Assembly (NCBI GenBank): GCA_905236005.1
Contig: CAJONJ010000039.1
Coordinates: forward strand, 2,612-66,611
Source: an uncultured Alphaproteobacteria bacterium
GTDB lineage: Bacteria; Pseudomonadota; Alphaproteobacteria; Rs-D84
DNA length: 64,000 bases
Direction of reading: 5' to 3'
Part shown: positions 2,969-25,251 of the stretch, one piece after another
Layout: each line of letters starts with the position of its first letter
How positions within the stretch are numbered: the first letter of the stretch is position 1
Program-made: the position numbers and the translations under genes
The notes under the pieces: model-generated
Told to the model about the DNA's origin: nothing
The model's input: the letters and a program-made list of their open reading frames with translations, nothing else
Databases searched by the model: none

Positions 2969-4039
2969 TTACATAATTGCAGATGTGATTTGTTCTTGCA
3001 TTTGAAATGTTCCAAACACAACCCACCCAATTATAACAGCGACTAAAATGATACCAATACTGTTTAACACATTAGCTATACTTTCCATTTTACGAACAGA
3101 TTCTTCCATATAATCACGTGCAATTTGATTTATATTTTTATCAAAATCGTTCATATCAGCATAAATTATTAAATCACCTATGATTTCTTCACTTGGAAAA
3201 TCTTTACCAGTTAACGCTAATGCATTACCTAAATTTTCACCGTTTGCAATATAATGTAACGTTTCTTCTAAAACAGCAGACAAATATCTGTTTGAATTAT
3301 CAGCCAATAAACGCATCGCATCTGGAACACTGACCCCAGCAGACACCATCGCAGCCAAAGACATCAACCAACTGACCGAAGACTGTAATTTATATGTACT
3401 CCATGGTGGCAATTTATCAAAAAACGTTCTGATTCTTCCTGTCCATATTGGCAATGACAACCAAATCAAAGCTATCAAAGCTACAAACACTGCACCAAAA
3501 ACAAACCAATATTTATTTGCAAACTCAGATGTCCAAACCAACGATGCCGCTGTTCCATGCCAAACAACTTCACTGCCCGCAGCCTCTGCCAAAGGTGGCA
3601 CCAAATACACTCCAACCATAACAACTATACCCACAGTCAAAACAAACAAAAACAAAGGATACGCAACAGCATTTAACATAGCACGTTTAATACGCCTGAT
3701 ACCACCAACAACACGACCAACGTTTTCCAAAGAAATCAACAAAGATGAAACATTACCAGACATTAACAACAAAGTTTCTTCATATGGAACCCAACCACGT
3801 GTTGCTTCTGCAAAAGTCATACCACGTTCCAAATTTTTTTGTATTTCACGCATAGCAATCGCAAATGGTTCGTTTGGTTTTTTACCATTTTTTGATTCTA
3901 TCATTTCAATTCTATTTAAGGCATCCATCAAAGTAAAATTGTTACGCAACAATGATGCAACCTTACGCGAAATAGCCATACGCTTGTCAGCATCTAATTT
4001 AAAAACTAATTTTGCATAAAGTATTTCTAACTTGTTCAT
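2969..4039 (-). CDS. GspF/PilC-family inner-membrane platform protein of a type IV filament/T2SS-like system
   Basis: 356 aa with three hydrophobic segments and two cytoplasmic helical domains. Its size resembles type IVb platforms of the BfpE/TcpE/PilR kind. It lies immediately downstream of a GspE-type ATPase. Confidence 0.65.
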   Translation of the reverse strand: MNKLEILYAKLVFKLDADKRMAISRKVASLLRNNFTLMDALNRIEMIESKNGKKPNEPFAIAMREIQKNLERGMTFAEATRGWVPYEETLLLMSGNVSSLLISLENVGRVVGGIRRIKRAMLNAVAYPLFLFVLTVGIVVMVGVYLVPPLAEAAGSEVVWHGTAASLVWTSEFANKYWFVFGAVFVALIALIWLSLPIWTGRIRTFFDKLPPWSTYKLQSSVSWLMSLAAMVSAGVSVPDAMRLLADNSNRYLSAVLEETLHYIANGENLGNALALTGKDFPSEEIIGDLIIYADMNDFDKNINQIARDYMEESVRKMESIANVLNSIGIILVAVIIGWVVFGTFQMQEQITSAIM

Positions 4040-4042
4040 ATT

Positions 4043-5674: not shown

Positions 5675-5675
5675 A

Positions 5676-6374
5676 TTATTTCCCGATATTTAAATTTTCA
5701 GAAACACCGTCTTTTTCAAAAATAATTCCTTCGTTTAAAGATATAGATTTCACTCTGTATCCATCTAATTCTTTACCTACTGAAATTCTTTTAGTTTGCC
5801 CAGAAGAAATATTTTCTACGGTTGCCTGCAATTGATTACCAATACCAGCAATATTTATCAATTTATATCTAGATGCTAGATTTCCTGATTCTTGTTTTTG
5901 TTGTCCAGATTTTTTTTCAACAGATTGTTTTTCTATAGAATCTTCTAAACTTTCTTTTTGTCTTTTTAAACTTTCAGCTTGTGCTTCTAATTCTTGCTGT
6001 TGATGTTCTGCACGACCAGACAAAGTATCTAATTCCATTTGTAATTTTAATTTTTCAGCATTTAATCTTTCCAGCTCTAAATCTAATTGTGCACGTTCTT
6101 TTTCCAGTTGCAAAACTACTTTGTCTTGTTCCAACAAAGTTATCTTTTCAAACAAAGAACCAGACATATCATATTCATCCAAAGCAGCTACAGAAACCCT
6201 GTCTGCAAAATCATCATCAGCAACTTCATTTACTGTCGCAATTTCTTGTGTTTGTATAACCTCTGGTTGTGATAATTCTTCTGATTCATCAGCAAACTCA
6301 TATTCATCTGCATTTGCACAAACCCCAGAAATCACCAACATACAACATAAAAATATTTTTAATTTTTTTAACAT
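5676..6374 (-). CDS. periplasmic coiled-coil protein with PilP-like C-terminal beta domain
   Basis: N-terminal signal peptide MLKKLKIFLCCMLVISGVCA, a long heptad-rich E/Q/L coiled coil, and a C-terminal YKLINIAGIG...VGKELDGYRV...IIFEKDG segment that resembles PilP/GspC secretin-interacting domains. Confidence 0.35.
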   Translation of the reverse strand: MLKKLKIFLCCMLVISGVCANADEYEFADESEELSQPEVIQTQEIATVNEVADDDFADRVSVAALDEYDMSGSLFEKITLLEQDKVVLQLEKERAQLDLELERLNAEKLKLQMELDTLSGRAEHQQQELEAQAESLKRQKESLEDSIEKQSVEKKSGQQKQESGNLASRYKLINIAGIGNQLQATVENISSGQTKRISVGKELDGYRVKSISLNEGIIFEKDGVSENLNIGK

Positions 6375-6384
6375 ATTTTCACCT

Positions 6385-7662
6385 TTATTTTGTATAAATA
6401 ATTACTTCGTATTGCCACATACGTGTAACAGCATTCCACGCAACAGATGTCATATACACACCATCAAAATCATTAAATATATGCATAAATTCTGTTGGTA
6501 TTAATTTAGACGCAGCAGAAATTTCAACGATATTCACACTTTCTGTATCTACACCATTTGTCACAGTATCTGTTACAGGATTTATATCTGCACGTATATT
6601 TATCTGTTGAAAATTCGTAGTAATATCACGCACGGCACTGGCTATATCACGTTCATCCAATGATGCATACGTTTTTAATTGTGGTAATCTAACACGAACC
6701 ATAACTTCGTTTTCAGACAATTGCTGAACCATTGCACCAGGCATTAATTCTGCACCATTAAGATAAAATTCATTTATTGTTCCAAAATTACGTGCAAATG
6801 TAACAGACACAAAATCTTCACCACATTTTGCATAGGTTTGATTCCACCCGGGAATTGGCTGCATAACAAACGCAATAGCTTTATAGCATAATTTGGCACG
6901 TTCCATAACATTTGGTAAATAATCGTATGGAAATTCGATTGGTGTAACTTCTTGTTTTGCTATATCTAATTGTTTTGCTAATTCTTGTTTTTTTAATTCA
7001 ATATTACGTTTATATTCTGCAACTAATTCAGGATTAGTCTGCACAGGTGATGATGAAAAAAATACACGTCTTATTTTATCACGAAACAAAACCCCACCAA
7101 CCAACAGAACCAAAACAAAAAATATAATCGTTGGCCAAATAGAATTAAAAACATTTATTGGATGCAGTCTGGCAGAAACAGAAGGACGTATTAATTCAGA
7201 AATAAATTTTTCCTGTGCCTTAGGCATTCCCCACGATGCAGGCGCAAACAAACCACCCCAATCAGGAATATTTGATAATTCTGTATATAATTTACGTGCT
7301 TGTTCTGCTGTTTCAATTAAAACATCACGAATTATTACACCATTACGCACAGCCACCAGATAAAAATAATTATTTACCTGAAAAACTCCTAAAAAAGACA
7401 CAAATTCAGACAAAGAATCAACAATTTCAGCTGCCGCACTTGGTAAACCAACATAAACCCCTGTGTTTTTATCACCCAAACCAACCATGGATTTATAATC
7501 TACAAATAATGTATATTTTTTATCTATATTTTTAGATAATTGCTTTGCATAATTTAACGCAGTATTACCAACACTGACAGGCTGCCAAAACAAGCCCGTT
7601 GCAAATTTTTTACGATGAACTGTTATTATTTGCTTTATCAATTCTCTCTCTGTTATACACAC
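6385..7662 (-). CDS. bitopic inner-membrane protein with GspL/PilO-like topology
   Basis: 425 aa. A cytoplasmic N-domain of about 180 aa is followed by a single TM (IWPTIIFFVLVLLVGGVLF) and a periplasmic C-domain of about 220 aa. Its position upstream of the ATPase and platform matches GspL or R64 PilO. Confidence 0.3.
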   Translation of the reverse strand: MCITERELIKQIITVHRKKFATGLFWQPVSVGNTALNYAKQLSKNIDKKYTLFVDYKSMVGLGDKNTGVYVGLPSAAAEIVDSLSEFVSFLGVFQVNNYFYLVAVRNGVIIRDVLIETAEQARKLYTELSNIPDWGGLFAPASWGMPKAQEKFISELIRPSVSARLHPINVFNSIWPTIIFFVLVLLVGGVLFRDKIRRVFFSSSPVQTNPELVAEYKRNIELKKQELAKQLDIAKQEVTPIEFPYDYLPNVMERAKLCYKAIAFVMQPIPGWNQTYAKCGEDFVSVTFARNFGTINEFYLNGAELMPGAMVQQLSENEVMVRVRLPQLKTYASLDERDIASAVRDITTNFQQINIRADINPVTDTVTNGVDTESVNIVEISAASKLIPTEFMHIFNDFDGVYMTSVAWNAVTRMWQYEVIIYTK

Positions 7663-7733: not shown

Positions 7734-8045
7734 TTATTTGTTACAATTATAAACTTTAACCTTTAATGTATACGTTTGTTTTGGTCCAAATATTGCACCA
7801 ACATTATCAGCAATTGATTCATTGACTATATAATAAGAATCACCACGTTTTTGTTGATTTAATATTTTTTGTTCCAAATAATTATACACATCTTCTTTGG
7901 TATAGTTTGTTATATCAGATGTCATAGTATATAAATACGTACAATCTTTTGGTTCTTGATATAATCTATTCAAACCTGTTCCTGCAGTTATTGTTTCAGC
8001 ACATGCGACCAATACCCCACATAAACAAATTATGCTTTTTTTCAT
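7734..8045 (-). CDS. small lipoprotein, 103 aa
   Basis: Signal peptide with lipobox LVAC. Its start overlaps the lpxC stop codon (ATGA). Confidence 0.4.
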   Translation of the reverse strand: MKKSIICLCGVLVACAETITAGTGLNRLYQEPKDCTYLYTMTSDITNYTKEDVYNYLEQKILNQQKRGDSYYIVNESIADNVGAIFGPKQTYTLKVKVYNCNK

Positions 8046-8986
8046 TTTTTCTCTCCTTTTGGTTCAACTATTTCATAGTTAGATTTATCACTAAATAATT
8101 TACGTAAAATTAAATTATTCAATGCATGTGAACCCTTATAAGATTGCACCCAACCACACAAAAAACCGCCTGATGTAAACATATCACCCAGTATATCTAT
8201 ACATTTATGACGAACAAATTCATCTGGATAATACAATTTATTCATAGTGGCATCCCATCTTGAATTCACAGCAATAACATTATGCAAATTACAACCTAGA
8301 CCCATACCATGACGTTTACAATATTCCCATTCAGAATATCCACCAAACGATCTAGATTTTGCAATATTATCAATAAAATCTTTTACAGATGCTTTTGAAC
8401 CATCAAAAGTATAAGAATACGACTGGGTTCCAATAATTTTATTATTATAATCTAAAATAGCATCTATTAACATCCCGTTATCATATGGTGCAATCCTAAT
8501 AAAGCCGTCAGTAGTCATTCTGCCACTAAAAATTTTTGCCTTAACACGTTGCCAAAACGGTAATGTTTTAATTAAATCTTTACTTTTTACTTCTACTGTT
8601 TTTTTAACAACTATTTTTTTCATTTTAGTCTTGTCAGAAACATATTTTTCTAATACTTTATATAACTCAAACGCACTTCCGTCCAAAAATGGTACTTCTG
8701 GTCCATCTATTTCAATAATTGCACTGTCTATACCCAACAAAAATAATACAGCCATTAAATGTTCAATTGTTCTGACATTTGCACCATTTTTTTTACCAAT
8801 TTGCGTACTGCGAAGCATTGTATCACATACATTATCAAACGTTGCAGGTATTAAATCAGAACCCTTGATATCTGTTCTTTTAAAGAAAATTCCTGTTTTT
8901 TTTGATGGCATCACAACCATATTCACAGGCAACCCCATATGCATACCAATACCAGATATCTTAACATTTTTTGTCACAGTAGTCAT
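8042..8986 (-). CDS. lpxC: UDP-3-O-acyl-N-acetylglucosamine deacetylase
   Basis: Conserved LpxC blocks including HxxE/GHALNN-like KGSHALNN and the zinc-binding His/Asp positions. 314 aa. Confidence 0.9.
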   Translation of the reverse strand: MTTVTKNVKISGIGMHMGLPVNMVVMPSKKTGIFFKRTDIKGSDLIPATFDNVCDTMLRSTQIGKKNGANVRTIEHLMAVLFLLGIDSAIIEIDGPEVPFLDGSAFELYKVLEKYVSDKTKMKKIVVKKTVEVKSKDLIKTLPFWQRVKAKIFSGRMTTDGFIRIAPYDNGMLIDAILDYNNKIIGTQSYSYTFDGSKASVKDFIDNIAKSRSFGGYSEWEYCKRHGMGLGCNLHNVIAVNSRWDATMNKLYYPDEFVRHKCIDILGDMFTSGGFLCGWVQSYKGSHALNNLILRKLFSDKSNYEIVEPKGEKK

Positions 8987-9891
8987 TTGTTTACTCCTTT
9001 ATATAGCCAATCATAAAAATTATTTTCTATTTCGGTGTTTAATTTTGCAAATCTAATTTCTTGTTTTGCCCAATCAGGTAACCTGACCCAATCTTTTTCC
9101 GTGGTTAATAATTTTGCATTTTTACTTTTTGCAACTGCAATTAAATCTTTAATATCTTTTTCAGTATATTGATAATGGTCTGGATACACACGTGTTTCAA
9201 TCAATTTACATGTAATACTGTTAAAGAATTTTTTTGGATAACCAATACCAGCAAACGCAATAACTGACGTTTTATTATCATATGGCGATACAGTTTGATT
9301 ATGTGCATAAAACACTGGTATATTTGTAGGCAACGCAAAATCAGGTGCAACATCTTTGTTTTTTATCACAATTATTGCATCTGCCCTGTGTATAGCAGAT
9401 TTAGGTTCACGCATTGGGCCAGCAGGTAACAAAAACCCATTTCCAAAACCAATACTTTCATCAAAAACCAACACTGAAATATCTTTTTTAATTGATGAAT
9501 TTTGGAAACCATCATCCATAATAATTGGTGTATTAGACTTTTGTTTATTTAACAAAATCAAATTACTTTTTCTGTCACCAACATGCACTAAAATACCGTC
9601 CCCAGACAACATCTTAGCTTCGTCCCCTATACCCTCAGTTTTTTTAGATTTCTTATACCCACGCATAACCACAGGTGCATCAAAATATTTTGCAACATTT
9701 CTGACTATTGGTGTTTTACCAACACCACCTGCCAGTATATTACCAAAACAAATAACAGGTCTTTTGGATACATATTCATGTTTTTTACGTAAATTAAAAA
9801 CAACACGTGACCCAATCCAATAAAACAAAGACAATGGCCACAAAACACATGCAATTATATTTCTTTTTAAAAACCATTTTGGTGTTTTCAT
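8983..9891 (-). CDS. lpxK: tetraacyldisaccharide 4'-kinase
   Basis: P-loop GNILAGGVGKTP and LpxK length/architecture. Its stop overlaps the lpxC start. Confidence 0.8.
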   Translation of the reverse strand: MKTPKWFLKRNIIACVLWPLSLFYWIGSRVVFNLRKKHEYVSKRPVICFGNILAGGVGKTPIVRNVAKYFDAPVVMRGYKKSKKTEGIGDEAKMLSGDGILVHVGDRKSNLILLNKQKSNTPIIMDDGFQNSSIKKDISVLVFDESIGFGNGFLLPAGPMREPKSAIHRADAIIVIKNKDVAPDFALPTNIPVFYAHNQTVSPYDNKTSVIAFAGIGYPKKFFNSITCKLIETRVYPDHYQYTEKDIKDLIAVAKSKNAKLLTTEKDWVRLPDWAKQEIRFAKLNTEIENNFYDWLYKGVNK

Positions 9892-10646
9892 AGCATTTTC
9901 GCTTTTTCTTTAAAATTATCTGGTGTCAAATCTTGTTCTACTTTAAAATCAGTAAAAATTTTATCCAAATCGTATGCTTGTTGCACCATGATATCTTCCA
10001 GATTTTTTCTTATATATTCAAAATCCGATATTTCTGTTTTTTTATCTATATAAATCGGCTGTCCAACAATTCCTTTGATAATTGAAAAAGGTCTAGTTAA
10101 CAAATATCTATCCCAACGATTTTGAAACCAAGGTCTGCTGCATGACACACAAACTGGAATAATTGGTGCACCTGTCATTTTCGCAAAATACAAAGCCCCA
10201 TCATGAAACCGCATAGATGGTCCATTTGGGCCATCTGGTGACAAAGCCAAACACTTTGTTCCCTGGGATAATACCTTTACCCCTTTTCTAAGAACAGACA
10301 CACCACCACCAAAAGAAGAACCGAACATAGCCTTTAAACCAAATAATCTTTCCAGTTTTGCAATGGCACGACCATCTTTGCGTGGGTCAGCAACAGCATA
10401 ACCACGAACACCAGCCATAGCAATCAAAGGCGACAACATCATAGTCCGTCCATGCCAAAACACAAAAATAGCAGGCTTTTTGCTAAATTTCTTTAAAATA
10501 CTGTAACCCTTTATATCTTTACGTGAAGTAAAATAAACAAACCAGATTAAAATACAGTAAATACAAGCAATTGGCCATTGCACAATTGCCCAACCAGAAA
10601 CATTATTCAAAAAACGTCTAAATCTTTTTTTTAAAGATTTTTGCAT
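9888..10646 (-). CDS. DUF374/lysophospholipid-acyltransferase-like protein commonly encoded beside kdtA/lpxK
   Basis: FWHGR and SPDGPNGP motifs. Overlaps the lpxK start. Confidence 0.5.
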   Translation of the reverse strand: MQKSLKKRFRRFLNNVSGWAIVQWPIACIYCILIWFVYFTSRKDIKGYSILKKFSKKPAIFVFWHGRTMMLSPLIAMAGVRGYAVADPRKDGRAIAKLERLFGLKAMFGSSFGGGVSVLRKGVKVLSQGTKCLALSPDGPNGPSMRFHDGALYFAKMTGAPIIPVCVSCSRPWFQNRWDRYLLTRPFSIIKGIVGQPIYIDKKTEISDFEYIRKNLEDIMVQQAYDLDKIFTDFKVEQDLTPDNFKEKAKML

Positions 10647-13221: not shown

Positions 13222-13270
13222 AGTTGAAAGTTTGATTTTAAAAAATACGATTTTTATAGTGCTTTTGAAC
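13222..13270. repeat. GTTCGAAAGT...CTTTTGAAC repeat, copy 3 (AGTTGAAAGT variant)
   Basis: See copy 1. Immediately follows the att-like repeat and overlaps the 3' end of the 13254 gene. Confidence 0.45.
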
Positions 13271-13847
13271 CGTCTTTTAATATTTTCCCTAAAATAGCCA
13301 TATCTAATTTTTCAAAATCTGGTTTATATAATTCAAATTTATCTTGCTGTTGAATCAATTTATCCCATAAAATATCAGATTGTTTTCTGGACATATTTGC
13401 AAAAACAGTTTTATCTTTTAAAACATATATTTTTATGTTTTTGTCTTTAATTTCCTGCATAATATCAATTGTAATAACATTTTTTATTTTCACATCTGTC
13501 AAAGAATAATATTCATCTTCTATATCATGTTTAAAACCAACAGAATCTAATTCATAAACATATGCTTTTTCTGGAACATTTTGCTTTAAACATTCAACAT
13601 ATAATTCATTATTTTTTACTGGGCTTTTATAACCGGTAGCAACTAATCGCATAATTGCATAAAGACGTGCACGTACAAAATCAGATGTTGCAAAAGCAGC
13701 AATTATTGGTGTTTTCATATTATTGATGTAACCTGGTTTCATACGAATAAAACCATCTGTTATTTTTATTTCAGACCCATGATAAAGAATTTTTGGTAAA
13801 CTGTTATTCATAACGGATATTATATCACAAACCATAAAATAATTCAA
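13254..13847 (-). CDS. hypothetical protein, 197 aa, translationally coupled to the upstream surface-protein gene (ATGA overlap)
   Basis: Intact ORF with no recognisable motifs. Confidence 0.4.
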   Translation of the reverse strand: MNYFMVCDIISVMNNSLPKILYHGSEIKITDGFIRMKPGYINNMKTPIIAAFATSDFVRARLYAIMRLVATGYKSPVKNNELYVECLKQNVPEKAYVYELDSVGFKHDIEDEYYSLTDVKIKNVITIDIMQEIKDKNIKIYVLKDKTVFANMSRKQSDILWDKLIQQQDKFELYKPDFEKLDMAILGKILKDGSKAL

Positions 13848-16833
13848 TTTACACTGACAGTATCGTCATAAATATAATAAACACCACTCGAAACACTTGT
13901 CCCAACTGGAATATTTACTTTCAAACTATTACCGCTTTGTAAATTACTGAAATCTGCATTCATTGGCACAAGTGTTGTTCCCATATTAGCATAAAAATCA
14001 GGAATGCCGTCATTATCAATATCAACATTTAATGACGGTGTCATTTGTTTTGTTCTGCGTAAATACACATATTTATCTCCAATATGTAATATATGACCAC
14101 ATTGTGCAGATTCCCACATACCAGCGGGTGCAAACAAACCACTTTGACAAGGTATTATTCCCTGATTGTTTATTTCATCAAAACTGTAAGTACCACCAGG
14201 ACAATAATTATTTACTGGACATTTCGAGCACACATTGCTGTTAGCTGGCAAATAATATCCATTATTACAAGACAAACTGCTTGCCACAACTTCTAAGCAA
14301 CCATTAACACTTGTGGTCGCACCATTTGCTGTACCGTCTGCTGTATATCCAGAATCGCATGTACATGTACTACGTGTATTCTTAGCTGGTGTGGAGCTGT
14401 TTGCGCCACATGCATAGCAAGATGTACTATCATATTTATAATAATTTGTCGCACACGTTTTACGTGCATAATATGTTGTTATAGCAGGGACTGCTGATGT
14501 AACTGGTGCAATTGTTGTAACGGTATTATCAGTAATATCCTGAGTTATTGCCCAACTTGTTGAAATATCATAATGTCCGTTACCACCTGGTGCAGGCAAA
14601 CTAATCGCTGGTAATGTGCACGCTGTATTGTAGAACAATTTTAATTGTGCATTAGTTGTACCTTCTGCCACACTAGCAACATAACATCCAATTCCAGACA
14701 ACCCCTCTATTACACCAGAATAACCGTTTTTATGTAATGTAATCATATAATAACAATCTGTCTGAACAGTAGAACCCACATCACTAGACCAACCCACACC
14801 TATCTCTGTCGCACAACTATTTATACCTTGATCAGTAGTATCAAAATACAATTGCCCCCCAGGGCACCAATTGCCAGCAGTGCAAGTTGTGCAAGTTTGC
14901 GAGTTTGCAGGTATATATTTACCTGCAGAACAAACTGTAAAACCATCCGCCAAGACGCAATCAGCAGAACTGGTCGATGTTTCTGTCAGTGTGATATCCC
15001 CAGGGGCACATTGGGTTCTTTGGCTGACTGAACCATAAGATGTCATACTAGCAGAAGAATAATAACCTATTCCAACATTTTCACAAGAGGACCCACCAAA
15101 TGTCCCCAAAACACCCCCAGCAACAAAATCGCCAGTTCCACTGTTACCAAAGAATCTACCACTAACCAGATCATACATACCAATTGCGTTATCAGACACA
15201 CGCCTAGCAGGTATAAAATCAAAAATTAACGTACTGTTTTCATACATTTTAAACCAATGTATGCGACCAGTTAACAGCGTGTCGTTACACCCACCAACAC
15301 AACCATTAGAAAACAATCTATATTTGTTATTTGAAATAATTGACCCACTAAAAGTACCAGATGTAGATGCGTTATCCACAGATAAAGATCTATTGTTACC
15401 TGTAAATTCGTATGTAATATGTTTTATCTCCCCAGCATTAAAAATTCCACCGACTGTTATTTTTGAACCTGTGCTCGAACCTTGAGCATTAGCAAATGCA
15501 ACCCATACACCAAATTTGTTTTCCTTAAAATTAGCCGCATGACCATTCAACGCGTCCTGATTTCCACCAAAATGCCCAAGAGTTCCAGAACCTTCTACCG
15601 AAGAACTATATTCAAGTTCCGCTTTAAAAGACGTTGAAGAAATCACATGGCCCGTATCAATATACTGTTTTCCATTTGCTTCTATATACGACAACCTTTC
15701 GTATTCACCTGTCCATTTTCCAGCAGGGCAACTGATTTTACAATCAGAAATAGACGTTTTTCCATCTTGTACATCACCATCATAACCCGATGGACACGGC
15801 AAACAGACACTTCCACTAAGATATTCCGCACCTGTACACGAGGTATGCTGAATTATCGCACAGGCTTTTTTGCTGTCCCAACTGTTTTTATACGCACTAT
15901 AATAAGTATCGGTAACATCATCTGTTCCATTTGGACAGCTTGTTACCATGTTGGATTTTTTAAATGCAGAATTAAATAAATTAGTAGCAGTTTGTCCATG
16001 TAACCCCAGGAAAGTATTACCAGGAATATATTGATTAGTCGTCGTAAAATTAACCTCAAAAAAAACGTATACATAAACATGTTGGCCGCAGCACCATCTA
16101 TATTTGGGAATAAATTATCTGGAAACACAGACAGCTTCTTGCATTGATAGAAAGCACTACGAAACATACTTTCTGCAGACCCATATGCATAACTAAACAA
16201 ACCATCAGGAATACCTGTCAAATTTGTACATTTATCAAAAACGGAACGAAACAAATTTTTCTTCGCGGTTGTTACACCAGAAAATAAATTCCCAGAAATT
16301 GTTTGCAACTCTGTACACCCGTTGCATAAATCAAAAAACGTTGGTTTGTCACTGTCATTAGTACCACCATTCAGCGTCGGAAAAGCCGAACCAATACTGC
16401 CATCTAAAGAAGCAATAAGAGTTGGTGTTCCACCGGTGCGTGTTGATATATTGTTGTTTGAAGCACCAAATCTGATTGCGGCACCAGATGAATCTTTATC
16501 ATTATTATAACTTGTTGTATTATATCCTGTTGCAAGTCCTGCAAATTTTATTATTCTTTGACCAGCCGTCGCATAAGTATGAGAGTATTCTGTCGGGGTA
16601 GTATTGTTATTTCGTGTAATGATTTCCACAGAGCTTCCATCATTCCAATCAACATAGAATATTCCTGATGCCGATAAAACAAATTTAAATACCGCATTTG
16701 CATTCAGGTTTGTCGTAGTTATTGTAAATTTTGTATCAACACAACCGTTTCCTGTATCTATTTCAGATGCCGTACACGCAACAGCCACTGTAATATTCAT
16801 CACGAATATACAAAGTGCACATATAAAACACAA
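13844..16833 (-). pseudogene. frameshifted or phase-variable large secreted surface protein (BspA-like LRR N-region plus Cys-rich CPxG repeat region), about 1000 aa if restored
   Basis: The track gives two ORFs (15943..16833 and 13844..15949) overlapping by 7 nt. The 3' 45 codons of the upstream ORF are low-complexity junk that begins exactly at the A8 tract at 16058-16065. Adding one A fuses the frames in phase (...NMFMYTFFFEVNFTTTNQYIPGNTFLGLHGQTATNLFNSAFKKSNMVTSCPNG...). The protein has an N-terminal signal peptide, LRR-like FxxCxxLTxIPDxLF repeats and many CxxCPxG motifs. Confidence 0.55.
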
Positions 16834-17002: not shown

Positions 17003-20000
17003 TTATATATTTTCATAAACACCGTATAAATCAGGACTTGGTTGTACAGTTTGTCCATCTGTAATTTTTTCTCGCAATCTTTTATTTGCTAATTTTAACG
17101 CATTAACAATACTTAATTTTCCAGGAACCATACTATTTGATTGTTCTAAATTTTTAATTCTGTCTGTTGGAACCAATGTTGGTTTATAATCTTTAACATC
17201 TTCTATGTTTATAATTTTATCTAATATTTTAATTTTTTTATGGTTATGATTGTATTTAACAGACATATTTTTATTTAAAATTTTAGATATCATTTTATAA
17301 AACAAATCATTTTTAATACCCATATCGTCTGTAAAGGTATCATTAACATTTTTATCAATAACACCTGATGTTTTAAGTGCAACAATAATATCAAAAAAAT
17401 CTTTATCGGTTAAACTTTTACCAGGATGGTGTTTACCATCTTCATCTATAAATGGCTTTTTATATTCAATTATATCAGACAAAGCCAACAAGCCACGTCT
17501 GACACATTCAAGATATTCAGAATGTTTTTGTTTTATCAATTCTTTTTCTATGACACTAGTATCTGGCACTTGTATATTTGGCATATTCAGCATCGGTTCA
17601 TATTTGTTTTCGGCAAAAAACATATTACGTAAATCAGATTGATAATATTTATACATAATCTTGGTTATGTATTTTTTTATTGTTTCATCATTATTTTGAA
17701 TATCGTTTATTGCTTTATTTAAAACATCTGATATTGATTTATCTTTTCTAGAATTCTGTATAATTTTATAAATTAACAACCCCAATAATCTTCTATCTAT
17801 ATCACTTGGTAAATTATCTATTTGTGCACCAGTATCAAAAATACCTATATGAACAACACCTTCTTGATCTGTATAAAAATTTTGCTGTCCAGCATGCCTA
17901 TCTGTATCCCATTTTTTACCAGATAACAATATTGCTAGTTCCAAAGCAACATATGCTTTTGCGTTATCATGTTGTTGTTTATCTGTATGTTTTGCACTGG
18001 TCAAAGAATCACCTTTGGCTAATTTCATAATTTTAAAAGCATTTTTATTATTTGGCATTGCACCAAACGCAACCCATTCAGCCACATCCACTTTATATTT
18101 TTGATTATTTAAACTGATTTCAAAAGGCGAATAATTATCAACAGCTTGTTTATATTTTTCATAATCTTTGTCGATATCTATTTCGTTATGACAAGATTTT
18201 TCTGCTTGTTCAAAAATATTTTTTAAAACACCAAATTTCTTTTCATCTCGCCACACCATAGATTTAATAGTTCCAGAAATAAAATCCAAATTTGTCATCA
18301 TTTTGTTTTGAATATTTTCACGCATTAACGCAACAACACAATCTTGGTTATCATATTTTACCTGAACTGTAACATAAATAGAACCAGCACCTAAAACATC
18401 ACCAACATAAGATATTTTACTATATTCTTCTGACGGCAAAGATTGTTTCAACATATCAAAAATTTCTTTACGATCTGGAACACTTGCTTTATCACGCAAA
18501 GTTGCTAGTTCTGTTCGTATTTCTGCTGGCAAAGATGGTAAATACGATAACATTTGTCCAAATTTTATAAATGCATCACCTTTGTATTGGAAAAAACCTT
18601 TTAATCCACGACCAATTTGTTGATTAGAATCTGTATTTTTTACAACATTGTTTGTTTTCACCATTGTTAATAATGTGCACAAATCAAAATTACGTTCCGC
18701 CATGGTTTCATTATTATATACAGATTCGATAACTACACCTATGGCGTTTTTTGTTTCTTCATCTGTTTTCATACTTTTAAATATTCTATTTAAAACAAAT
18801 TGTATTTTTTCGTCTGGATTTTTGCTGTAACCATCTAATAATGGATTCAAAAAATATGCCTGAACCGGTAATGGCGAATGTGAAAAATTATCATGAATTT
18901 GTTCTAAAACTTGTTTATTTCCCCACTCTTCTTTTCCAAAAAAAGGCTTATTTTGAATTGCTGATAAAAATTTATTGCAAGATTCATCTGTAAAATTATT
19001 TGTTAAAAATTCTATACCTTCTTCTGCTAAATTGCTGACACATAAAAAATCCACAACATTTTGTGCAATACGTACAGGCCAATCATATTTCACAGCATCT
19101 TCATTACCTGCTTTGCTTTTATATTTAGCATCAAATAAATTTGCAATTTCAAATTGTGCAGTAATTTTATCTGCTATTTTTTTACTTAAATTTTCAATAC
19201 ATATATTTATACCTTCTTTGTTTATTGTTTTTAAATTATCCAACCATTTTACACAAGAATCCACTTTGTTTAAATAATCCATTTGTCTGGTATCTTTACC
19301 CAAACGCACAGCCCAATAATTTGCGATATAATCTAATAATTTTTCCCTTTCGGTCATTACACCCAAACATCTTTTTTCTTTATATTCACCATATTCTTGC
19401 AATAAAATATTCACAGCTAATCTTAAACGATTGTTTGTTTCCTGTGTATTAAAATTCGTTTCGTTAATTTTATACTTGGTTATATCATTAACCAATATTT
19501 TTAACATATCGTTTTTATGTGTAAAATATGTAGAGAAAAATTTATATTTTAACATATAATCATATATATCAATTTTATCTTGAACTGAATATTTTTTATA
19601 TGATTCTACATTAATACGCTTATCAATAAAATTCTGTTGAGGCAGTTTCAGTCCTATAATAAAATGGTCAAATAATTTATTATCTTTTGAAAATTTTACA
19701 AAATCTATTACATCTAATTCATATTTAGCCATATAATTAAATAATACTAAATTAAAAATAAATTCATCACTATCTTTTAACGTATAACAAATATTATATA
19801 ATTCATCTTTATTTTTTGGTGGTGTTATACCCAGAAAATCTAATATTTTTTGTGTTTTGTTTGCATCATCTATATTAGAACCATTTGCTAATATATGATA
19901 AGCTAATGATATAAATTGTGAATATTTTAATACACCAGAATATTTTTCAATAACATATTTATTATTAATCGCATGTTCCAGAATTATTTCTGAATCTTTT

Positions 20001-21745
20001 ATAAAAAACAATCTGTCATATACTTGTAAAACTTTATCTTTGTTTAATGATTTTTGTGTAGCGAAATCAATAACATTTAATATAACAGGACGTAGTTTTT
20101 CTTGTTTTAAATCTAAATGATGATCTACTGTGCTTTTGTTACCAGAATCATAAATATTACTTTGACAACCAAAATAATTATAAAAATATTCGTTCTGTAT
20201 TCTGTTATATATTTTTTGGTACAATACATCAAATTCGTTTGGTAACATACTATGATTTCCAAATAATTCATCAACATCATGTTTATCTATAAAATCCCAA
20301 CAATCTAAACAAGATTGAACGCTTTTTTCTTTATCATATTTTGCTAATAAATTTAACAATTTGATTTTATTATCATAAAAATCTTCAAACAAATATTCTT
20401 GAACAATACCGTTTTTATTTACAGAATATATTTCTGTTTTAACGGTGTCTTTATAACCATAAGAAATATTATTATAATACAATCGTATTACATCATTAAC
20501 AGATTGATTATCATAAGATTTTAATTGTTCAAATGGTAATAATTTACCAATATTATCTTTGCCAAAACCTGTAAAAATTGAAACATCTTTTTTATCTTTA
20601 TAATCAGCAAAAAAATCTAAATATTTATAAATATTTTTGTCATATTTTAATATTTTTTCTGCATATTTTACAGCATTGTCTTTGTTATACACGTTTTTAC
20701 TGAAATCTGTTAAACAATCATTAAATTCTTTAAAAATACCAAACAATTGTAATTGTAAATCTTTTAAATATATATCAGCATAATCCCATTGATATGTGTT
20801 CATAAATATATCTTGTAAAAATTTTTCTTCTTGTTTTGTCCCTGTTTTTTTAAGCATCTCAATATATAAAACAAGTTTTTTAAAAAAATCATCCTGTCTT
20901 TTTTTATTATTTTTAATTTCTTCCATACCACTCAGTTGTACCAAAAATTGCAAAAGAACCATCTGTCCAAATTTATCACGTATATCATAAAAACTAGTTG
21001 TTCCAAAATTATATTCTAATAATGTATCAATATACGATTCTTGATCTTCTTTTGGTAATAATTGTACTGTTTTTATTTTGAAAAAATTCCAATCAATATC
21101 AGTTTTATCTTTATCAATATCTGTAAAATGTTTACCACGTTGTCTTTCTAAAACAGCAATTGCAGCCATAACATTATTTAATCTAAAAGAATCACTGCCA
21201 TGAACATCAGCTATTCTAGCAATTACATCTGAAAAATTTTTATTTCCATTGATACCTATTTTTTCCCATGCAGACATTGCATAATTTGGATTATAACCAG
21301 CATTCATCATAAATTCAACCGCCAAAGTATCACAAGATTGTTCCTGAAAAATAGTATTTTTATTATTTGGAAATTTTAATTGCCAATAATAATGTCCCAA
21401 CTCATGTGCTAAAACAGCAGCAAATTCATCTTCGTTATCCAGTTGTTTTATCAACCCACCAGAAACAGCTAAAACAGCTTTATATTTTGGATCTTTTATA
21501 TATTGTGAATCAGTAACAGTAAAAGCACCTACTTCATCTGAATTATACCCTGAACAATAAACTTCTTCTGGTTTAAGATTTAATTTATCATTATTTGCAT
21601 TTAAAAGCTTAGTTAAAACATTTTTGATTTTTTCAGATATTAATTTATTTACTTTATCATCAGGATTATACAAACGCAGTTTTTCAAAAATATCTTTGTC
21701 TAATATTTCTTGATTTTCTACTTTTTTTTCTTCTGTATCAGCCAT
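17003..21745 (-). CDS. giant 1580-aa multidomain protein: N-terminal M48-like zinc metallopeptidase domain, long helical middle, C-terminal UbiB/ABC1-like atypical kinase domain
   Basis: The N-terminal region has AVLAHELGHYYW followed by EQSCDTLAVEFMMNAGYNP...EKI, matching the HEXXH...E..AD pattern of M48/HtpX peptidases. The C-terminal region has IKFGQMLSYLPSLPAEIRTELATLRDKASVP, ...GAGSIYVTVQV, ...TDRHAGQQNF and ...IGIFDTGAQ. These align with the UbiB/ADCK signature KFGQxLSxRxDxxP...LxxLQDxVxP, the ASIAQVH loop, HADxHPGN and IDxG. No TM segments. Confidence 0.6.
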   Translation of the reverse strand: MADTEEKKVENQEILDKDIFEKLRLYNPDDKVNKLISEKIKNVLTKLLNANNDKLNLKPEEVYCSGYNSDEVGAFTVTDSQYIKDPKYKAVLAVSGGLIKQLDNEDEFAAVLAHELGHYYWQLKFPNNKNTIFQEQSCDTLAVEFMMNAGYNPNYAMSAWEKIGINGNKNFSDVIARIADVHGSDSFRLNNVMAAIAVLERQRGKHFTDIDKDKTDIDWNFFKIKTVQLLPKEDQESYIDTLLEYNFGTTSFYDIRDKFGQMVLLQFLVQLSGMEEIKNNKKRQDDFFKKLVLYIEMLKKTGTKQEEKFLQDIFMNTYQWDYADIYLKDLQLQLFGIFKEFNDCLTDFSKNVYNKDNAVKYAEKILKYDKNIYKYLDFFADYKDKKDVSIFTGFGKDNIGKLLPFEQLKSYDNQSVNDVIRLYYNNISYGYKDTVKTEIYSVNKNGIVQEYLFEDFYDNKIKLLNLLAKYDKEKSVQSCLDCWDFIDKHDVDELFGNHSMLPNEFDVLYQKIYNRIQNEYFYNYFGCQSNIYDSGNKSTVDHHLDLKQEKLRPVILNVIDFATQKSLNKDKVLQVYDRLFFIKDSEIILEHAINNKYVIEKYSGVLKYSQFISLAYHILANGSNIDDANKTQKILDFLGITPPKNKDELYNICYTLKDSDEFIFNLVLFNYMAKYELDVIDFVKFSKDNKLFDHFIIGLKLPQQNFIDKRINVESYKKYSVQDKIDIYDYMLKYKFFSTYFTHKNDMLKILVNDITKYKINETNFNTQETNNRLRLAVNILLQEYGEYKEKRCLGVMTEREKLLDYIANYWAVRLGKDTRQMDYLNKVDSCVKWLDNLKTINKEGINICIENLSKKIADKITAQFEIANLFDAKYKSKAGNEDAVKYDWPVRIAQNVVDFLCVSNLAEEGIEFLTNNFTDESCNKFLSAIQNKPFFGKEEWGNKQVLEQIHDNFSHSPLPVQAYFLNPLLDGYSKNPDEKIQFVLNRIFKSMKTDEETKNAIGVVIESVYNNETMAERNFDLCTLLTMVKTNNVVKNTDSNQQIGRGLKGFFQYKGDAFIKFGQMLSYLPSLPAEIRTELATLRDKASVPDRKEIFDMLKQSLPSEEYSKISYVGDVLGAGSIYVTVQVKYDNQDCVVALMRENIQNKMMTNLDFISGTIKSMVWRDEKKFGVLKNIFEQAEKSCHNEIDIDKDYEKYKQAVDNYSPFEISLNNQKYKVDVAEWVAFGAMPNNKNAFKIMKLAKGDSLTSAKHTDKQQHDNAKAYVALELAILLSGKKWDTDRHAGQQNFYTDQEGVVHIGIFDTGAQIDNLPSDIDRRLLGLLIYKIIQNSRKDKSISDVLNKAINDIQNNDETIKKYITKIMYKYYQSDLRNMFFAENKYEPMLNMPNIQVPDTSVIEKELIKQKHSEYLECVRRGLLALSDIIEYKKPFIDEDGKHHPGKSLTDKDFFDIIVALKTSGVIDKNVNDTFTDDMGIKNDLFYKMISKILNKNMSVKYNHNHKKIKILDKIINIEDVKDYKPTLVPTDRIKNLEQSNSMVPGKLSIVNALKLANKRLREKITDGQTVQPSPDLYGVYENI

Positions 21746-21855: not shown

Positions 21856-22470
21856 TTATATTAAACATTTTTTTAAATTTTCACCTGTATCATTTTGATC
21901 AACATGTTTATTACGAATTTCTTCTTCTGCTTTGATACGTTGTTTTAACAAAATAATATCAGGATGATTTTGTATTTTTTCATTGATTTTATCTATGGCA
22001 GATTCTATATCTTGTTGATTTTTCACAAAAATTGGTGTAATAGAATCAGCAGCAGACATCACAGATTGCTTTAATAAATCTGCATTATCATCTATGATTG
22101 ATAAATATGCACGTATATGTTCATCTTCATGTTGTAAAATTGCGTTATATGAACAACTGTCTGGCTTATGAGAAATATCTATTTGAACCAAAAAATCAGA
22201 ATATCCAATAACAGCATCTACATTTTTCAATGCGACACAAAAACCATCTTCAATAGAAGTTATATCTGTTGTTATTTCATAATTATCAACCATTGTTGCA
22301 ATAACTTCACCATGTAATATATCCATCTGTTGCAAAGGTTGAACCACACTTTTTTCCCAAGATGGATTTTTTATATTTATTTTTGGTGTTAATTTATATC
22401 CTAAACAATCATCTCCAAAAGATATTGTTGGAACAAATAAAATTAATAAAAACAAATAAAATAATCTCAT
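21856..22470 (-). CDS. small secreted protein with HEXXH motif (HEDEH), 204 aa
   Basis: Signal peptide MRLFYLFLLILFVPTISFG. Motif LQHEDEHIRAY. Encoded between virB4 and the giant gene with only a 3-nt gap to virB4. Confidence 0.45.
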   Translation of the reverse strand: MRLFYLFLLILFVPTISFGDDCLGYKLTPKINIKNPSWEKSVVQPLQQMDILHGEVIATMVDNYEITTDITSIEDGFCVALKNVDAVIGYSDFLVQIDISHKPDSCSYNAILQHEDEHIRAYLSIIDDNADLLKQSVMSAADSITPIFVKNQQDIESAIDKINEKIQNHPDIILLKQRIKAEEEIRNKHVDQNDTGENLKKCLI

Positions 22471-22473
22471 GAA

Positions 22474-24888
22474 TTACATTGTTTGCTTTTTTAAATATTC
22501 TGCAACAAAATTATTTCCATAATTTTTATATAATTCTTCTGCCAGTAATACAGATGAACGCCCAGATTCAAATAAACGTAACATATTACCTAAACCACCT
22601 AATTCTGTATTTAAAACCACAGATTCACCATTAACAGGTCTTGATAATAACACAGCACGTTTTAAATTTGGATATGCTTTACCTTGAATAAACGCCATTT
22701 CCAAAGGATTTAAATTCCATTTTTCATAATCACTGATATCAGCGGCTGGATTACGGAAAAACAACACAGTTTGTGCCTGTCCACGAACAACATCACCTAT
22801 TCCCATTTTATCTAGAACATTTGCACGTTGGAAAGAAACCATATAAGCTTGTCTATTTTTACGTCCTTCTTGTAAACCAGCTATGAAATTATCACGAAAC
22901 ATTTTATTTTCTAACATAGGTGCTGTTTCATCAATCATAATTAATGAAGGATTTCCACCGGATACAGTTATTGTGTTTATTCTGTGTAATATATAAGATA
23001 TAACCGCAGGTGCCAAAATTTCATCTTGTAATATATCTGTGAAATCAAAAGTAGTTAACCGAGAATATAAATCCAAAGTATCTTCATTTTCATTAAATAT
23101 ATCACCATATTGTAAATCATCAACCCATTTTTTCAAAGCACTACGCATATTACCATCTGATGAAAAACAACTTTCATATAAATTTTTTAACAACCTGTCT
23201 TTATCTGATAAATAATCAAAATTCACAGACACAGCACGAGCAATTTCATCAGTTGATAAAACATCTGTTTGACCTGTTATTATTGCAAACCATCTACGCA
23301 AGAAAGCTCTGTTTACGGCTGTATCTGGCATTTTTAACGGATTTAAATGTGTTAAAAATGTATTATTTTCTTCATTTTTTTCTTTACCATTCATAGTGAT
23401 ATATTTACCACCAACAGACAAAGTGAAAATTTCAGCACCTTTGTTTCTATCAAAGAAAAATACTTTTAATTTCGGGTGTCTTAAAGATTGAGCAATCAAA
23501 AACGAAAATAAAGTTGTTTTACCACCACCTGTTGGACCAATTGTCAAAGTATGTCCCACAGCAGCTGGTTTATCAGATACATGAAATTGAAATTGATACG
23601 GTGTTCCTTGTGCTGTTGGAAATACAACCAATGGGCCAGGACCCCAATCACTGTTTTTAATACCCTGTGGCATAGAAGACAAAGGTATACTGATTGCAGC
23701 TGTCCTAGATAACATTTTAAAACTACGTGGGAAAACATCAAACCCTGGTATTTTAGCAAAAAATGATACTTTTGCTGCAAAATTTTCAACCACAGGTGAT
23801 ACACCAAAACCAGCACATATTTTTTTAAATTCTGCAATATATTGATTTAATTCATCTAAATTATATCCAAATAAAACAAAAGAAGGATAATAATCAACCA
23901 AAGTTTGATTTCCTGTAATATTTTCATCCATTGAAAATTCTGCTTCCGCTAATTGCTCTGTTGTAGATTCTCTATTTTTATCAGTAATTGTTGATTTATA
24001 TTGCCGTATTAAAAAATCAACATCTTTGTATTGCAATATACGAAAAGCATTCATTGTTATCATTTCACATTGCAAAGTAGATATAGAATCATAAAAATCT
24101 TCATCTAAATAATCAGGTGATATTTTAAAAGATAACATAGCTGAATAATATTTTTTATCACCACTAGTATATTCTACTATACCATTATTTTTAAAATCTA
24201 CATTATCAACTGTCACTACATTGGATATATTATCATCACATTTTTTTATCACAGGTTTTGATACAGGCGACAAAATTCTGCCAAAAAATGTAGCCATATT
24301 ATCAAAATTATCATTTTTTAATAATTCAGGTTTATAAACAGATAAAATAGATTCTATATATCCACAATATTTATCTAGTTTATCTTTATTATTTTGTCCA
24401 GAAACAGAAATAACAAGATAATATGTATTTGTATAAATTTTTAAACCTTGGTTATTCCATTTATTATATATTTTTTGTAACACAGGTTGATCAAATTCAT
24501 AATTTGTTTTTTCATCAGCAAAATCACGTATTGTAAAAAATCTTAAACAAACATCTGAATCTTGTATTTGATTAAATAATTGAGCTCTTAAATCCAGTAA
24601 TTTTTCACGATTTTTACTATCCATCATACTGGTTTGAACACCTTTGATTTTATAAACACGAACCAAAGAACCATCTGTGGTTGACAAAGTATTATCGGTA
24701 TAAACTTTATCAAATGGTAAATATTCAGAATATTTAACATAACCAAACTTTGGTAAAATCTTTTTATTTATCAAAGGAATAAATATTAACAATAAAATAA
24801 ATGCTAAAACTATCAATAAACAAACAACAGTTAGATTTAACATCATTGAATTAGTATTACCAGCAAAATAATCAAATATTTTTTCCAT
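22474..24888 (-). CDS. virB4: type IV secretion system ATPase VirB4
   Basis: 804 aa. Walker A motif IGPTGGGKTT, Walker B motif LIMIDE, CagE/TrbE/VirB4-like length, N-terminal hydrophobic segment. Preceded by virB3. Confidence 0.85.
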   Translation of the reverse strand: MEKIFDYFAGNTNSMMLNLTVVCLLIVLAFILLLIFIPLINKKILPKFGYVKYSEYLPFDKVYTDNTLSTTDGSLVRVYKIKGVQTSMMDSKNREKLLDLRAQLFNQIQDSDVCLRFFTIRDFADEKTNYEFDQPVLQKIYNKWNNQGLKIYTNTYYLVISVSGQNNKDKLDKYCGYIESILSVYKPELLKNDNFDNMATFFGRILSPVSKPVIKKCDDNISNVVTVDNVDFKNNGIVEYTSGDKKYYSAMLSFKISPDYLDEDFYDSISTLQCEMITMNAFRILQYKDVDFLIRQYKSTITDKNRESTTEQLAEAEFSMDENITGNQTLVDYYPSFVLFGYNLDELNQYIAEFKKICAGFGVSPVVENFAAKVSFFAKIPGFDVFPRSFKMLSRTAAISIPLSSMPQGIKNSDWGPGPLVVFPTAQGTPYQFQFHVSDKPAAVGHTLTIGPTGGGKTTLFSFLIAQSLRHPKLKVFFFDRNKGAEIFTLSVGGKYITMNGKEKNEENNTFLTHLNPLKMPDTAVNRAFLRRWFAIITGQTDVLSTDEIARAVSVNFDYLSDKDRLLKNLYESCFSSDGNMRSALKKWVDDLQYGDIFNENEDTLDLYSRLTTFDFTDILQDEILAPAVISYILHRINTITVSGGNPSLIMIDETAPMLENKMFRDNFIAGLQEGRKNRQAYMVSFQRANVLDKMGIGDVVRGQAQTVLFFRNPAADISDYEKWNLNPLEMAFIQGKAYPNLKRAVLLSRPVNGESVVLNTELGGLGNMLRLFESGRSSVLLAEELYKNYGNNFVAEYLKKQTM

Positions 24889-24891
24889 ATC

Positions 24892-25251
24892 TTATACCAC
24901 TAACCTTTTTGGAATTTTATTTCTTAATAATCTTAATTTAGAAAATATTATTTGTGCTATTTGTGGGTCACGTTTAGAATAAATACCTAAAATAGAATGA
25001 GATAATATTAAACAACCTAAAAAACTGAGTGGTAAAGCGAAACTGTTTACACCAAAAACTAAACTAAAAACCAATAACACAATAAATAAAACAAACCAAA
25101 ATATAAAATTTAATATAGCAAGAGAATACGGCACATAAAATATGCGTGGTGGATTTGCCAAAGCTTTTAGAACTTTTTGTTTCAAAACTCCCTCTCCTGA
25201 TATACTAATTATAACAATTTCAACTTTTTTCAACAAGCATAAAAGTAACAA
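24892..25251 (-). CDS. virB3: type IV secretion system protein VirB3
   Basis: About 100-120 aa with two TM segments and an LKALANPPRIFYVPY-like VirB3 N-motif. Lies immediately upstream of virB4. Confidence 0.55.
   Translation of the reverse strand: MLLLCLLKKVEIVIISISGEGVLKQKVLKALANPPRIFYVPYSLAILNFIFWFVLFIVLLVFSLVFGVNSFALPLSFLGCLILSHSILGIYSKRDPQIAQIIFSKLRLLRNKIPKRLVV

Follow-up and report, generated by a model that had tools for sequence, protein, structure and literature searches.

Zinc metallopeptidases of the M48 type, among them HtpX, BepA, Oma1 and Ste24, cleave membrane-proximal or lipid-modified substrates. Members of the UbiB/ABC1/ADCK family are, to our knowledge, ancient and disease-linked ATPases with an obscure substrate that are always membrane-anchored; COQ8A/ADCK3, Escherichia coli UbiB, Rv3197 and MSMEG_1954 all combine a protein-kinase-like fold with N-terminal KxGQ helices. 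UbiB proteins act as ATPases rather than as protein kinases, and in COQ8 the active site is closed to proteins, cardiolipin and phenols or phenolic lipid precursors are activators, and KxGQ has a role in both ATPase activity and membrane binding, its Gln holding a candidate nucleophilic water (bioRxiv 10.1101/149823). In Legionella, in which atypical kinase-like domains are found in several effectors of type IV secretion systems (T4SSs), a pan-kinome survey records the ABC1/UbiB type solely under housekeeping and not among the effectors (lpg2905; PMC9758233). Here, in a 64,000-nucleotide stretch of DNA from an uncultured alphaproteobacterium (the window), we describe a gene for a 1580-residue protein in which an M48-type zinc peptidase, an α-solenoid, a divergent UbiB/COQ8-like domain and a basic tail are joined, and which is a candidate substrate of a VirB-type T4SS, of which virB3 and virB4 lie beside its gene. 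The gene and its four parts are as follows.

17003–21745, minus strand: whole gene of the 1580-residue soluble protein (open-reading-frame (ORF) list and translation; ATG start; stop codon at 17003–17005).
21101–21745, minus strand: N-terminal M48-type zinc metallopeptidase domain, soluble form (residues 1–215).
18746–21100, minus strand: all-α solenoid (residues 216–1000), from an AlphaFold2 (AF2) model and fold matches.
17246–18745, minus strand: divergent UbiB/ABC1/COQ8-like protein-kinase-like domain, hereafter the C-domain (residues 1001–1500), from NCBIfam, hhalign, AF2 and Foldseek.
17006–17245, minus strand: variable basic C-terminal tail (residues 1501–1580), a candidate secretion signal, from its charge and its low conservation and predicted local distance difference test (pLDDT) values.

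The reading frame is uninterrupted over 17003–21745, with a GC content of 25.7% compared with 33.2% for the window. No signal peptide was found on the protein, nor any transmembrane (TM) helix: the highest Kyte–Doolittle mean over 19 residues is 1.18 and no 19-residue segment exceeds 1.6, compared with means of 3.0–3.5 for the TM helices of the adjacent VirB3 and VirB4. The original prediction, made from the letters and translations of this DNA, had proposed a TM-free fusion of an M48-like peptidase to a UbiB/ABC1-like kinase and held that polytopic TM helices, or a failure to find either fold, would count against it. The hydropathy scan detects no such helices, profile and structure searches recover both folds, and every motif string that it quoted is located in the translation. 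Its sizes required revision, with a C-terminal kinase-like region of ~500 rather than ~350 residues, a linker of ~785 rather than ~900 residues, and the 80-residue basic tail as an addition.

The host belongs to the order Rs-D84, among the relatives of Candidatus Enterousia, and not to the Rickettsiales in the strict sense. Ca. Enterousia has been placed in Rs-D84, an order with genomes of <1 Mb that has neither a tricarboxylic acid cycle nor a respiratory chain, has incomplete glycolysis and is judged to consist of obligate symbionts or parasites of other cells (PMC12306168).

The protein is one member of a large family. An identical protein is present on 4–5 metagenome contigs from independent assemblies, and family-specific peptide patterns were scanned over one genome per GTDB species. 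Full-length relatives occupy ~47 loci, all in gut or rumen alphaproteobacterial metagenome-assembled genomes (MAGs) labelled Candidatus Enterousia, 'Alphaproteobacteria bacterium', 'Rickettsiales bacterium' and similar, and one of them lies on a 716-kb complete chromosome. Several Rs-D84 MAGs carry two paralogues, and the Ca. Enterousia MAGs L014 (7784–17054) and L016 (7785–17043) carry tandem copies (1530 + 1543 residues). In L016, and also in L012 (9995–14670), one copy is split into two overlapping ORFs, for which a frameshift, a pseudogene or an assembly error is possible. Word-indexed searches with the full-length protein or a full-length profile gave just 7–8 proteins, as matches to the K/N-rich linker fill up the list of candidates, so that a profile of the C-domain and an exhaustive HMMER search over 1.84 billion cluster representatives were needed; these gave 1226 matches at E ≤ 1e-3, 577 at E ≤ 1e-10 and 294 at E ≤ 1e-30. 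Almost all of the best 150 are 1400–2770 residues long, with the domain close to the C terminus.

Profiles of the four modules were then scanned over the superfamily matches, counting as large relatives those of at least 1300 residues (n = 123). The M48 and UbiB-like modules occur together in 114 of these, and the module corresponding to residues 701–1000 is also present in 113. A one-off fusion or an assembly chimera is excluded by the shared architecture of these 114 and by the identical protein in independent assemblies. Among 39 full-length Rs-D84 members, aligned at 13–50% identity per module, the invariant or nearly invariant positions are HExxH, E135, D139 and H182 in the peptidase and, in the C-domain, K1061/G1063/Q1064, G1119/G1121/S1122, E1188, W1279-D-x-D-R-H-x-G-Q-Q-N and D1304-T-G. 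Judged from this conservation of modules and residues across 123 representatives, the peptidase–UbiB-like architecture is therefore old and strongly maintained. The original prediction had not recognised the combination, and we likewise found no description of the family in the literature and no Pfam or NCBIfam model that captures the C-domain or the linker; it is, however, far from unique to this gene.

The two helices that bear the zinc-site motifs of the peptidase lie at the following positions in this gene.

21392–21406, minus strand: HELGH zinc-binding and catalytic motif (residues 114–118), in 38 of 38 aligned Rs-D84 members and 112 of 114 superfamily representatives with the domain.
21329–21343, minus strand: EQSCD helix (residues 135–139), with putative third zinc ligand E135 and with D139, aligned with ENQAD of PDB 3c37.

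Pfam PF01435 scores 31.9 bits on the N-terminal domain against a gathering threshold of 20.3 (E = 1.4e-7), the aligned part covering only residues 92–120. A phmmer search matched the soluble M48 peptidase 3c37 (E = 6e-7), pairing the HExxH helix plus the downstream helix ('EQSCDTLAVEFMMNAGYNP' with 'ENQADFLGVETMYKAGYNP'), and the same entry ranks first in Foldseek for the N-terminal model. Neither E135 nor D139 varies among the 39 Rs-D84 members. The equivalog models of HtpX and BepA give scores far under their cutoffs. On every M48 criterion examined, namely HExxH, the downstream Glu, the PF01435 threshold and the fold, the domain is, by sequence and model, an M48 peptidase, as the original prediction had it; its zinc site is intact and appears functional. 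Set against the soluble M48 peptidases E. coli BepA/YfgC and Geobacter Q74D82 (3c37), with HtpX, Ste24/ZMPSTE24 and Oma1 as remoter comparators, the protein shares with BepA a helical repeat region after the peptidase, although here this region is ~785 residues long and not of the tetratricopeptide type. It further differs in having neither signal peptide nor TM helices, in a spacing of 17 residues between HExxH and the Glu helix as opposed to ~50 in 3c37, and in the additional fused kinase-like domain.

Beyond residue 210, the AF2 model consists of helices only, which agrees with the helical middle region that had been predicted, with pLDDT values of 65–88 at residues 640–980 and <50 at residues 425–625. 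Fold matches are generic HEAT/ARM types only, and the solenoid is the least conserved part of the protein (16–31% identity to orthologues). Its last third is a conserved module of its own.

18746–19645, minus strand: conserved module (residues 701–1000; MID2 profile), which co-occurs with the UbiB-like domain.

The C-domain carries equivalents of most of the motifs that define the UbiB active site, in the following places.

18554–18565, minus strand: KFGQ, the KxGQ signature of the UbiB family (residues 1061–1064), in a predicted helix; all 123 representatives have K and 121 have Q.
18329–18331, minus strand: A1139, at the position of the β3 'VAIK' lysine (hhalign column).
17876–17911, minus strand: WDTDRHAGQQNF, the equivalent of the UbiB catalytic loop HxDxHxGN (residues 1279–1290; hhalign and conservation counts).
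17828–17836, minus strand: DTG, the equivalent of the DFG metal-binding motif (residues 1304–1306), aligned with 'ldfg' of an ABC1 protein.
17531–17677, minus strand: 49-residue C-lobe insertion (residues 1357–1405), specific to this protein, pLDDT <50.

Other motif positions are GAGS (residues 1119–1122), VVALMR (1137–1142) and IFDTGA (1302–1307); the insertion is K/N/Y-rich and predicted to be disordered, and its alignment columns are occupied in no more than three other family members. By both sequence and fold, the best matches of the C-domain are to the UbiB family. NCBIfam TIGR01982 (UbiB) matches residues 1017–1201 at E = 6.3e-10 and NF003404 matches at E = 2.9e-8, for a joint span of residues 1010–1201, and a profile of the C-domain retrieves PF03109 (ABC1) proteins at E ~1e-5 in a database of 5.8 billion sequences. 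An hhalign comparison with a PF03109 protein gave a probability of 96% and E = 3e-9 over 255 columns, running from KxGQ through DFG and placing 'vvvKllrp' against 'CVVALMRE', 'hadphpgn' against 'DTDRHAGQ' and 'dfg' against 'DTG'. The AF2 model of residues 985–1580 has a mean pLDDT of 72 (80–94 in the core, low in the tail), and its top 12 Foldseek neighbours in the PDB all belong to the UbiB family (E = 2e-7 to 2e-5), namely COQ8A/ADCK3 (7udq, 5i35 and 4ped), MSMEG_1954 (7cyr) and Rv3197 (5yk2), with ordinary eukaryotic-type protein kinases next. A sequence search of the PDB with the C-domain profile gave no match at E ≤ 1, so that solved relatives exist only at the level of fold. Together, TIGR01982, hhalign and Foldseek uphold the kinase-like fold of the UbiB/ABC1 kind that had been proposed.

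The same comparisons show how far the domain has diverged. Shared with UbiB are the GxGS/AAAS-type loop, an ExD with the αC Glu, the catalytic Asp and His, and the Asp of DxG; not shared are the TM anchor, the position in the protein (here at the C terminus of proteins of 1500–2700 residues) and the consensus of the catalytic loop, which reads DxDRHxGQ rather than HxDxHxGN, with Asp for the first His and Gln for Asn, while DFG reads DTG and E1188, D1282, H1284 and D1304 are kept. The substitution of the VAIK lysine that had been suspected is real, as hhalign sets the ABC1 lysine against A1139: across the 39 Rs-D84 members this position is Ala in 15, Ser in 13, Gln in nine and Gly in two, with Lys in none, and across 123 superfamily representatives it is S26/A25/K18/Q15/R13/T10/G9. 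Around it, all 123 representatives have K1061, E1188 (αC Glu), D1280, D1282 and H1284; Q1064 is kept in 121, D1304 in 120 and Q1287 (in place of Asn) in 116. The TIGR01982 score of 38.2 bits lies far under the curated cutoff of 487.55, a Pfam scan gave no PF03109 match to the protein at E ≤ 1, and some distant relatives reach 21.7 bits on PF03109 against a cutoff of 22.9. On the β3 lysine and the curated cutoffs, and in part on the HxDxHxGN and DFG consensus, we therefore place the C-domain outside UbiB proper, as a divergent UbiB-like sister family. The β3 lysine is, to judge by the alignments, dispensable in the clade of the 1580-residue protein, with an active site that is remodelled yet conserved. 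Because the catalytic residues are invariant or nearly so across the 39 members and 123 representatives, both active sites of the protein look functional rather than decayed. The hosts differ as well: quinone biosynthesis or distribution, the setting of UbiB elsewhere, is very unlikely as a role for the C-domain since Rs-D84 has no respiratory chain, and the host has no quinone pathway.

The gene lies downstream of T4SS genes on the same strand.

24892–25251, minus strand: virB3 (PF05101 at 24.7 bits against a cutoff of 23.9; TM helices).
22474–24888, minus strand: virB4 ATPase gene (TIGR00929 at E = 3.6e-114, PF03135; 71–85% identity in related genomes).
21856–22470, minus strand: p204, a small secreted HExxH/four-Cys protein of 204 residues (signal-peptide-like N terminus; conserved in orthologues).

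VirB4 has a strongly hydrophobic N-terminal helix of its own (residues ~19–40, hydropathy mean 3.5) besides the separate upstream VirB3 gene. p204 consistently comes after virB4; its motif is HEDEH, and HEDEH, HEQKH or HENKH together with four Cys is conserved in 13 orthologues. The idea that p204 is a known T4SS subunit was dropped, since neither Pfam nor the PDB gave a match; the protein may be a periplasmic metalloprotein that is associated with the T4SS and has escaped recognition, and it is duplicated in L004 (4055–4726 and 3432–4052).

A gap of 110 nucleotides precedes the 1580-residue gene, with AAGG 8 nucleotides ahead of its ATG. No terminator-like hairpin was found on the minus strand from virB3 through the end of the gene; promoter scans were uninformative, as this AT-rich DNA gives about as many matches as shuffled sequence does. 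The same-strand order virB3–virB4–p204–gene recurs in eight genomes (the window, L012, L013, L014, L016, L017, L018 and L023), with a gap after p204 of 0.7–4 kb in the recurring loci. In the rvh T4SS of Rickettsiales, virB3 and virB4 are followed by virB6 paralogues. Here they are likewise followed by large same-strand coding sequence, in this case for the secreted HExxH protein and a soluble protein instead of a polytopic VirB6. The gene is also the fastest-evolving of its block: in comparison with the closest genome, identities are 94% for YchF, 88% for T2SSE, 81% for VirB4 and 74% for LpxK, as opposed to 36%, 22%, 23% and 50% for the four modules of the protein.

The tail is basic. The last 100 residues carry a net charge of +8 and, as a mean over 39 family members, +7.4, where overall composition predicts about −1.7; in 35 of the 39 the final 30 residues are net positive. 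Among distant relatives, P0097, P0100, P0102 and P0103 have clear Sec-type signal peptides. In three others (2615–2771 residues) the N terminus is replaced or extended by a SidE_PDE domain and ankyrin repeats, which precede the conserved C-terminal modules (PF12252 at E = 1e-28 and 1e-24 in the two scanned by Pfam, and annotated in the third), a combination that is the typical make-up of Legionella Dot/Icm effectors. The contig of one of them encodes a PurB that scores 823 bits against PDB 3bhg, with the next entry at 585 bits; we take 3bhg to be the Legionella pneumophila PurB (adenylosuccinate lyase).

In P0161 (L083, 217–8322), of 2701 residues, SidE_PDE and ankyrin repeats occur together with a degenerate M48-like stretch (…AITHECALIRSLGHH…) and with the conserved solenoid and UbiB-like C terminus; its contig carries Legionella-like housekeeping genes, and it may represent an undescribed Legionellales effector family with the shared module. 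A tblastn search of the Legionella-like relative P0131 against plasmids was uninformative, giving only an ankyrin match on a Rickettsia plasmid.

We suggest that the 1580-residue protein is an exported effector of its host-dependent Rs-D84 bacterium, most likely a substrate of the adjacent VirB-type T4SS, which would combine ATP-dependent, UbiB-like engagement of a membrane or lipid with M48 cleavage of a nearby protein, a proposal to which we give roughly even chances. The traits from which this reading derives are the linkage to virB genes, fast divergence, paralogues and tandem copies, basic tails, and the relatives with Sec signals or SidE_PDE–ankyrin fusions. The protein would be made in the cytoplasm without a signal peptide, from a gene that is probably co-transcribed with virB3–virB4–p204, and would be handed over to the VirB-type T4SS through its basic C terminus for delivery into a partner cell. 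There, the UbiB-like module would engage a membrane or lipid in an ATP-dependent manner and the M48 module would cleave a membrane-proximal protein, with the α-solenoid of ~785 residues as a putative scaffold or target binder. The UbiB-like domain would bind nucleotide without the classical β3 lysine and, by analogy with COQ8 and UbiB, could be a lipid- or membrane-activated ATPase or a small-molecule handler rather than a protein kinase. Like the large T4SS effectors of Legionella (the SidE family, LegK, Lpg2603 and the pseudokinase SidJ), the protein is large and soluble, with two enzymatic modules, an atypical kinase-like domain, a T4SS-adjacent gene, fast divergence and SidE_PDE- or ankyrin-fused relatives. 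It differs from them in that its kinase-like domain is of the UbiB type and its host is an uncultured gut alphaproteobacterium, and translocation of the family is a hypothesis from sequence, for which the gene context is partly that of an effector and the basic tail is suggestive.

Several observations weigh against this proposal. The T4SS context claimed in the original prediction recurs as same-strand order in the eight genomes above, but in L003, L004, L011 and L054 the VirB block either is inverted or lies as far as 9 kb from the gene, and no T4SS gene occurs within 6–10 kb of the distant paralogues P0036, P0040 and P0008. No virB6, virB8–11 or virD4 was found in the 64-kb window or its flanks of up to 10 kb. 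Adjacency to virB4 may be inherited gene order in small syntenic genomes, as the gene equally adjoins DUF374–lpxK–lpxC. The C-terminal signal that the original prediction had asked for amounts to basic enrichment, a non-specific trait. Occurrence in every sampled Rs-D84 lineage, with invariant catalytic residues, also fits a housekeeping role. Loss of the β3 lysine could mean zero ATP turnover, and AF2 confidence is moderate (pLDDT 72 and 65), from alignments of 10–16 sequences.

The likeliest alternative, though on balance we think it unlikely, is a cytoplasmic housekeeping factor: a giant membrane-peripheral machine for quality control or lipid homeostasis, in which an HtpX/BepA-like protease and a UbiB-like lipid ATPase would serve the bacterium's own envelope. 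It would explain the ~47 loci across Rs-D84 MAGs with invariant catalytic residues, the position kept between the virB block and DUF374–lpxK–lpxC–pilO, and the missing signal peptide. Against it, the gene diverges faster than any of its neighbours, varies in copy number and is broken into separate ORFs in some MAGs, and the protein has no TM anchor, unlike HtpX or UbiB. The relatives with Sec signal peptides must act outside the cytoplasm of the producer, which is hard to reconcile with a purely cytoplasmic role, and the SidE_PDE and ankyrin fusions of other relatives also speak against it.

Those signal-peptide-bearing relatives must take Sec-dependent routes, and it is conceivable, if less probable still, that the protein is an effector or toxin exported by another path, be it type I-like, related to the type II secretion system (T2SS) or type IV pili, or by vesicles or lysis, with the nearness of virB3–virB4 being inherited synteny. 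The linkage to virB4 is not universal, and T2SSE, T2SSF and PilO genes lie ~10 kb away in the same block. Yet the Rs-D84 members have no signal peptide, the same-strand order directly past virB4–p204 is kept in the eight genomes, and the basic C terminus matches signals of the VirB/D4 type.

A degenerate pseudoenzyme scaffold, with a dead UbiB-like pseudokinase domain and with binding as its only action, seems highly improbable to us. This reading, whose pseudokinase part was raised in the original prediction, draws on A1139 in place of lysine, the change of Asn to Gln and of DFG to DTG, and the missing ABC1 match in Pfam at E ≤ 1. It becomes doubtful in view of the other catalytic residues: K and Q of KxGQ, E1188, D1282, H1284 and D1304 are invariant or nearly so in the 123 representatives, which is unexpected in a dead site, 18 of them retain the β3 lysine, and HExxH…E of the peptidase is intact. 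A divergent VirB6-family channel component, suggested only by the slot downstream of virB3–virB4, is refuted, as that family is polytopic with five or more TM helices whereas this protein has none (highest 19-residue mean 1.18, as against 3.0–3.5 in VirB3 and VirB4) and is built of soluble peptidase, solenoid and kinase-like folds.

The effector proposal can be taken one step further, into speculation that we would hold only very loosely. The peptidase module is related to Ste24, the CAAX prenyl protease, and the two enzymes might work as a single machine on proteins that are lipid-anchored in the partner cell. The UbiB-like part would recognise and raise the anchor, be it isoprenoid or another lipid, or else a cardiolipin-rich patch of membrane, after which the M48 part would cut the protein so anchored, such as a prenylated small GTPase. 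If so, the family would be a new, widespread class of effector in Rs-D84, Legionella-like and other bacteria, and would yield, for the first time, a UbiB-type enzyme that is soluble and TM-free and whose substrate can be identified.

The individual kinds of domain are known; what is new is their obligatory combination, a conserved active site that lacks the lysine, the missing membrane anchor, and the size and distribution of the family, which comprises hundreds of clusters with no database model. In it, a soluble UbiB-like domain has lost the 'essential' β3 lysine, has kept the other catalytic residues and is coupled to an intact M48 protease. If exported, the protein would be the first candidate effector for host-dependent gut alphaproteobacteria with <1-Mb genomes (Rs-D84/Enterousia), and would point to an unrecognised effector module shared with Legionella-like bacteria; if not, it would be a new type of machine for envelope or lipid quality control. 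Either way, it offers a tractable entry into UbiB biochemistry and bears on the lifestyle of Rs-D84.

The window is otherwise ordinary chromosome, with topA, dnaG, ftsW, PBP2, mreBC, lpxC/lpxK, genes for aminoacyl-tRNA synthetases and genes of type IV pili and the T2SS, and it has no T4SS gene besides those named above. On the minus strand, a T2SSF–T2SSE–(232 residues)–PilO-like cluster (2969–7662) and DUF374–lpxK–lpxC (8042–10646) lie ~6–15 kb from the gene and are syntenic across Rs-D84; an mSphere survey reports type IV pili for the UBA9783 lineage and does not mention them for Rs-D84. Closer to the gene, a 197-residue ORF (13254–13847, minus strand) has a sub-threshold match (E = 0.079; 14 bits against 31) to ART-PolyVal. 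ART-PolyVal is an ADP-ribosyltransferase found in polyvalent proteins. Downstream of the gene, ORFs of 296 residues (15943–16833) and 701 residues (13844–15949), both on the minus strand, have a GC content of 36–39% compared with 26% for the 1580-residue gene, are rich in Cys, Gly, Ser and Thr, and overlap by 7 nucleotides. The N terminus of the 296-residue ORF is hydrophobic and its last ~40 residues resemble out-of-frame read-through, so that the pair may be a single surface-protein gene broken by a frameshift. In L014 and L016 the large gene is likewise followed by a weak homologue of the 701-residue protein (23–24% identity).

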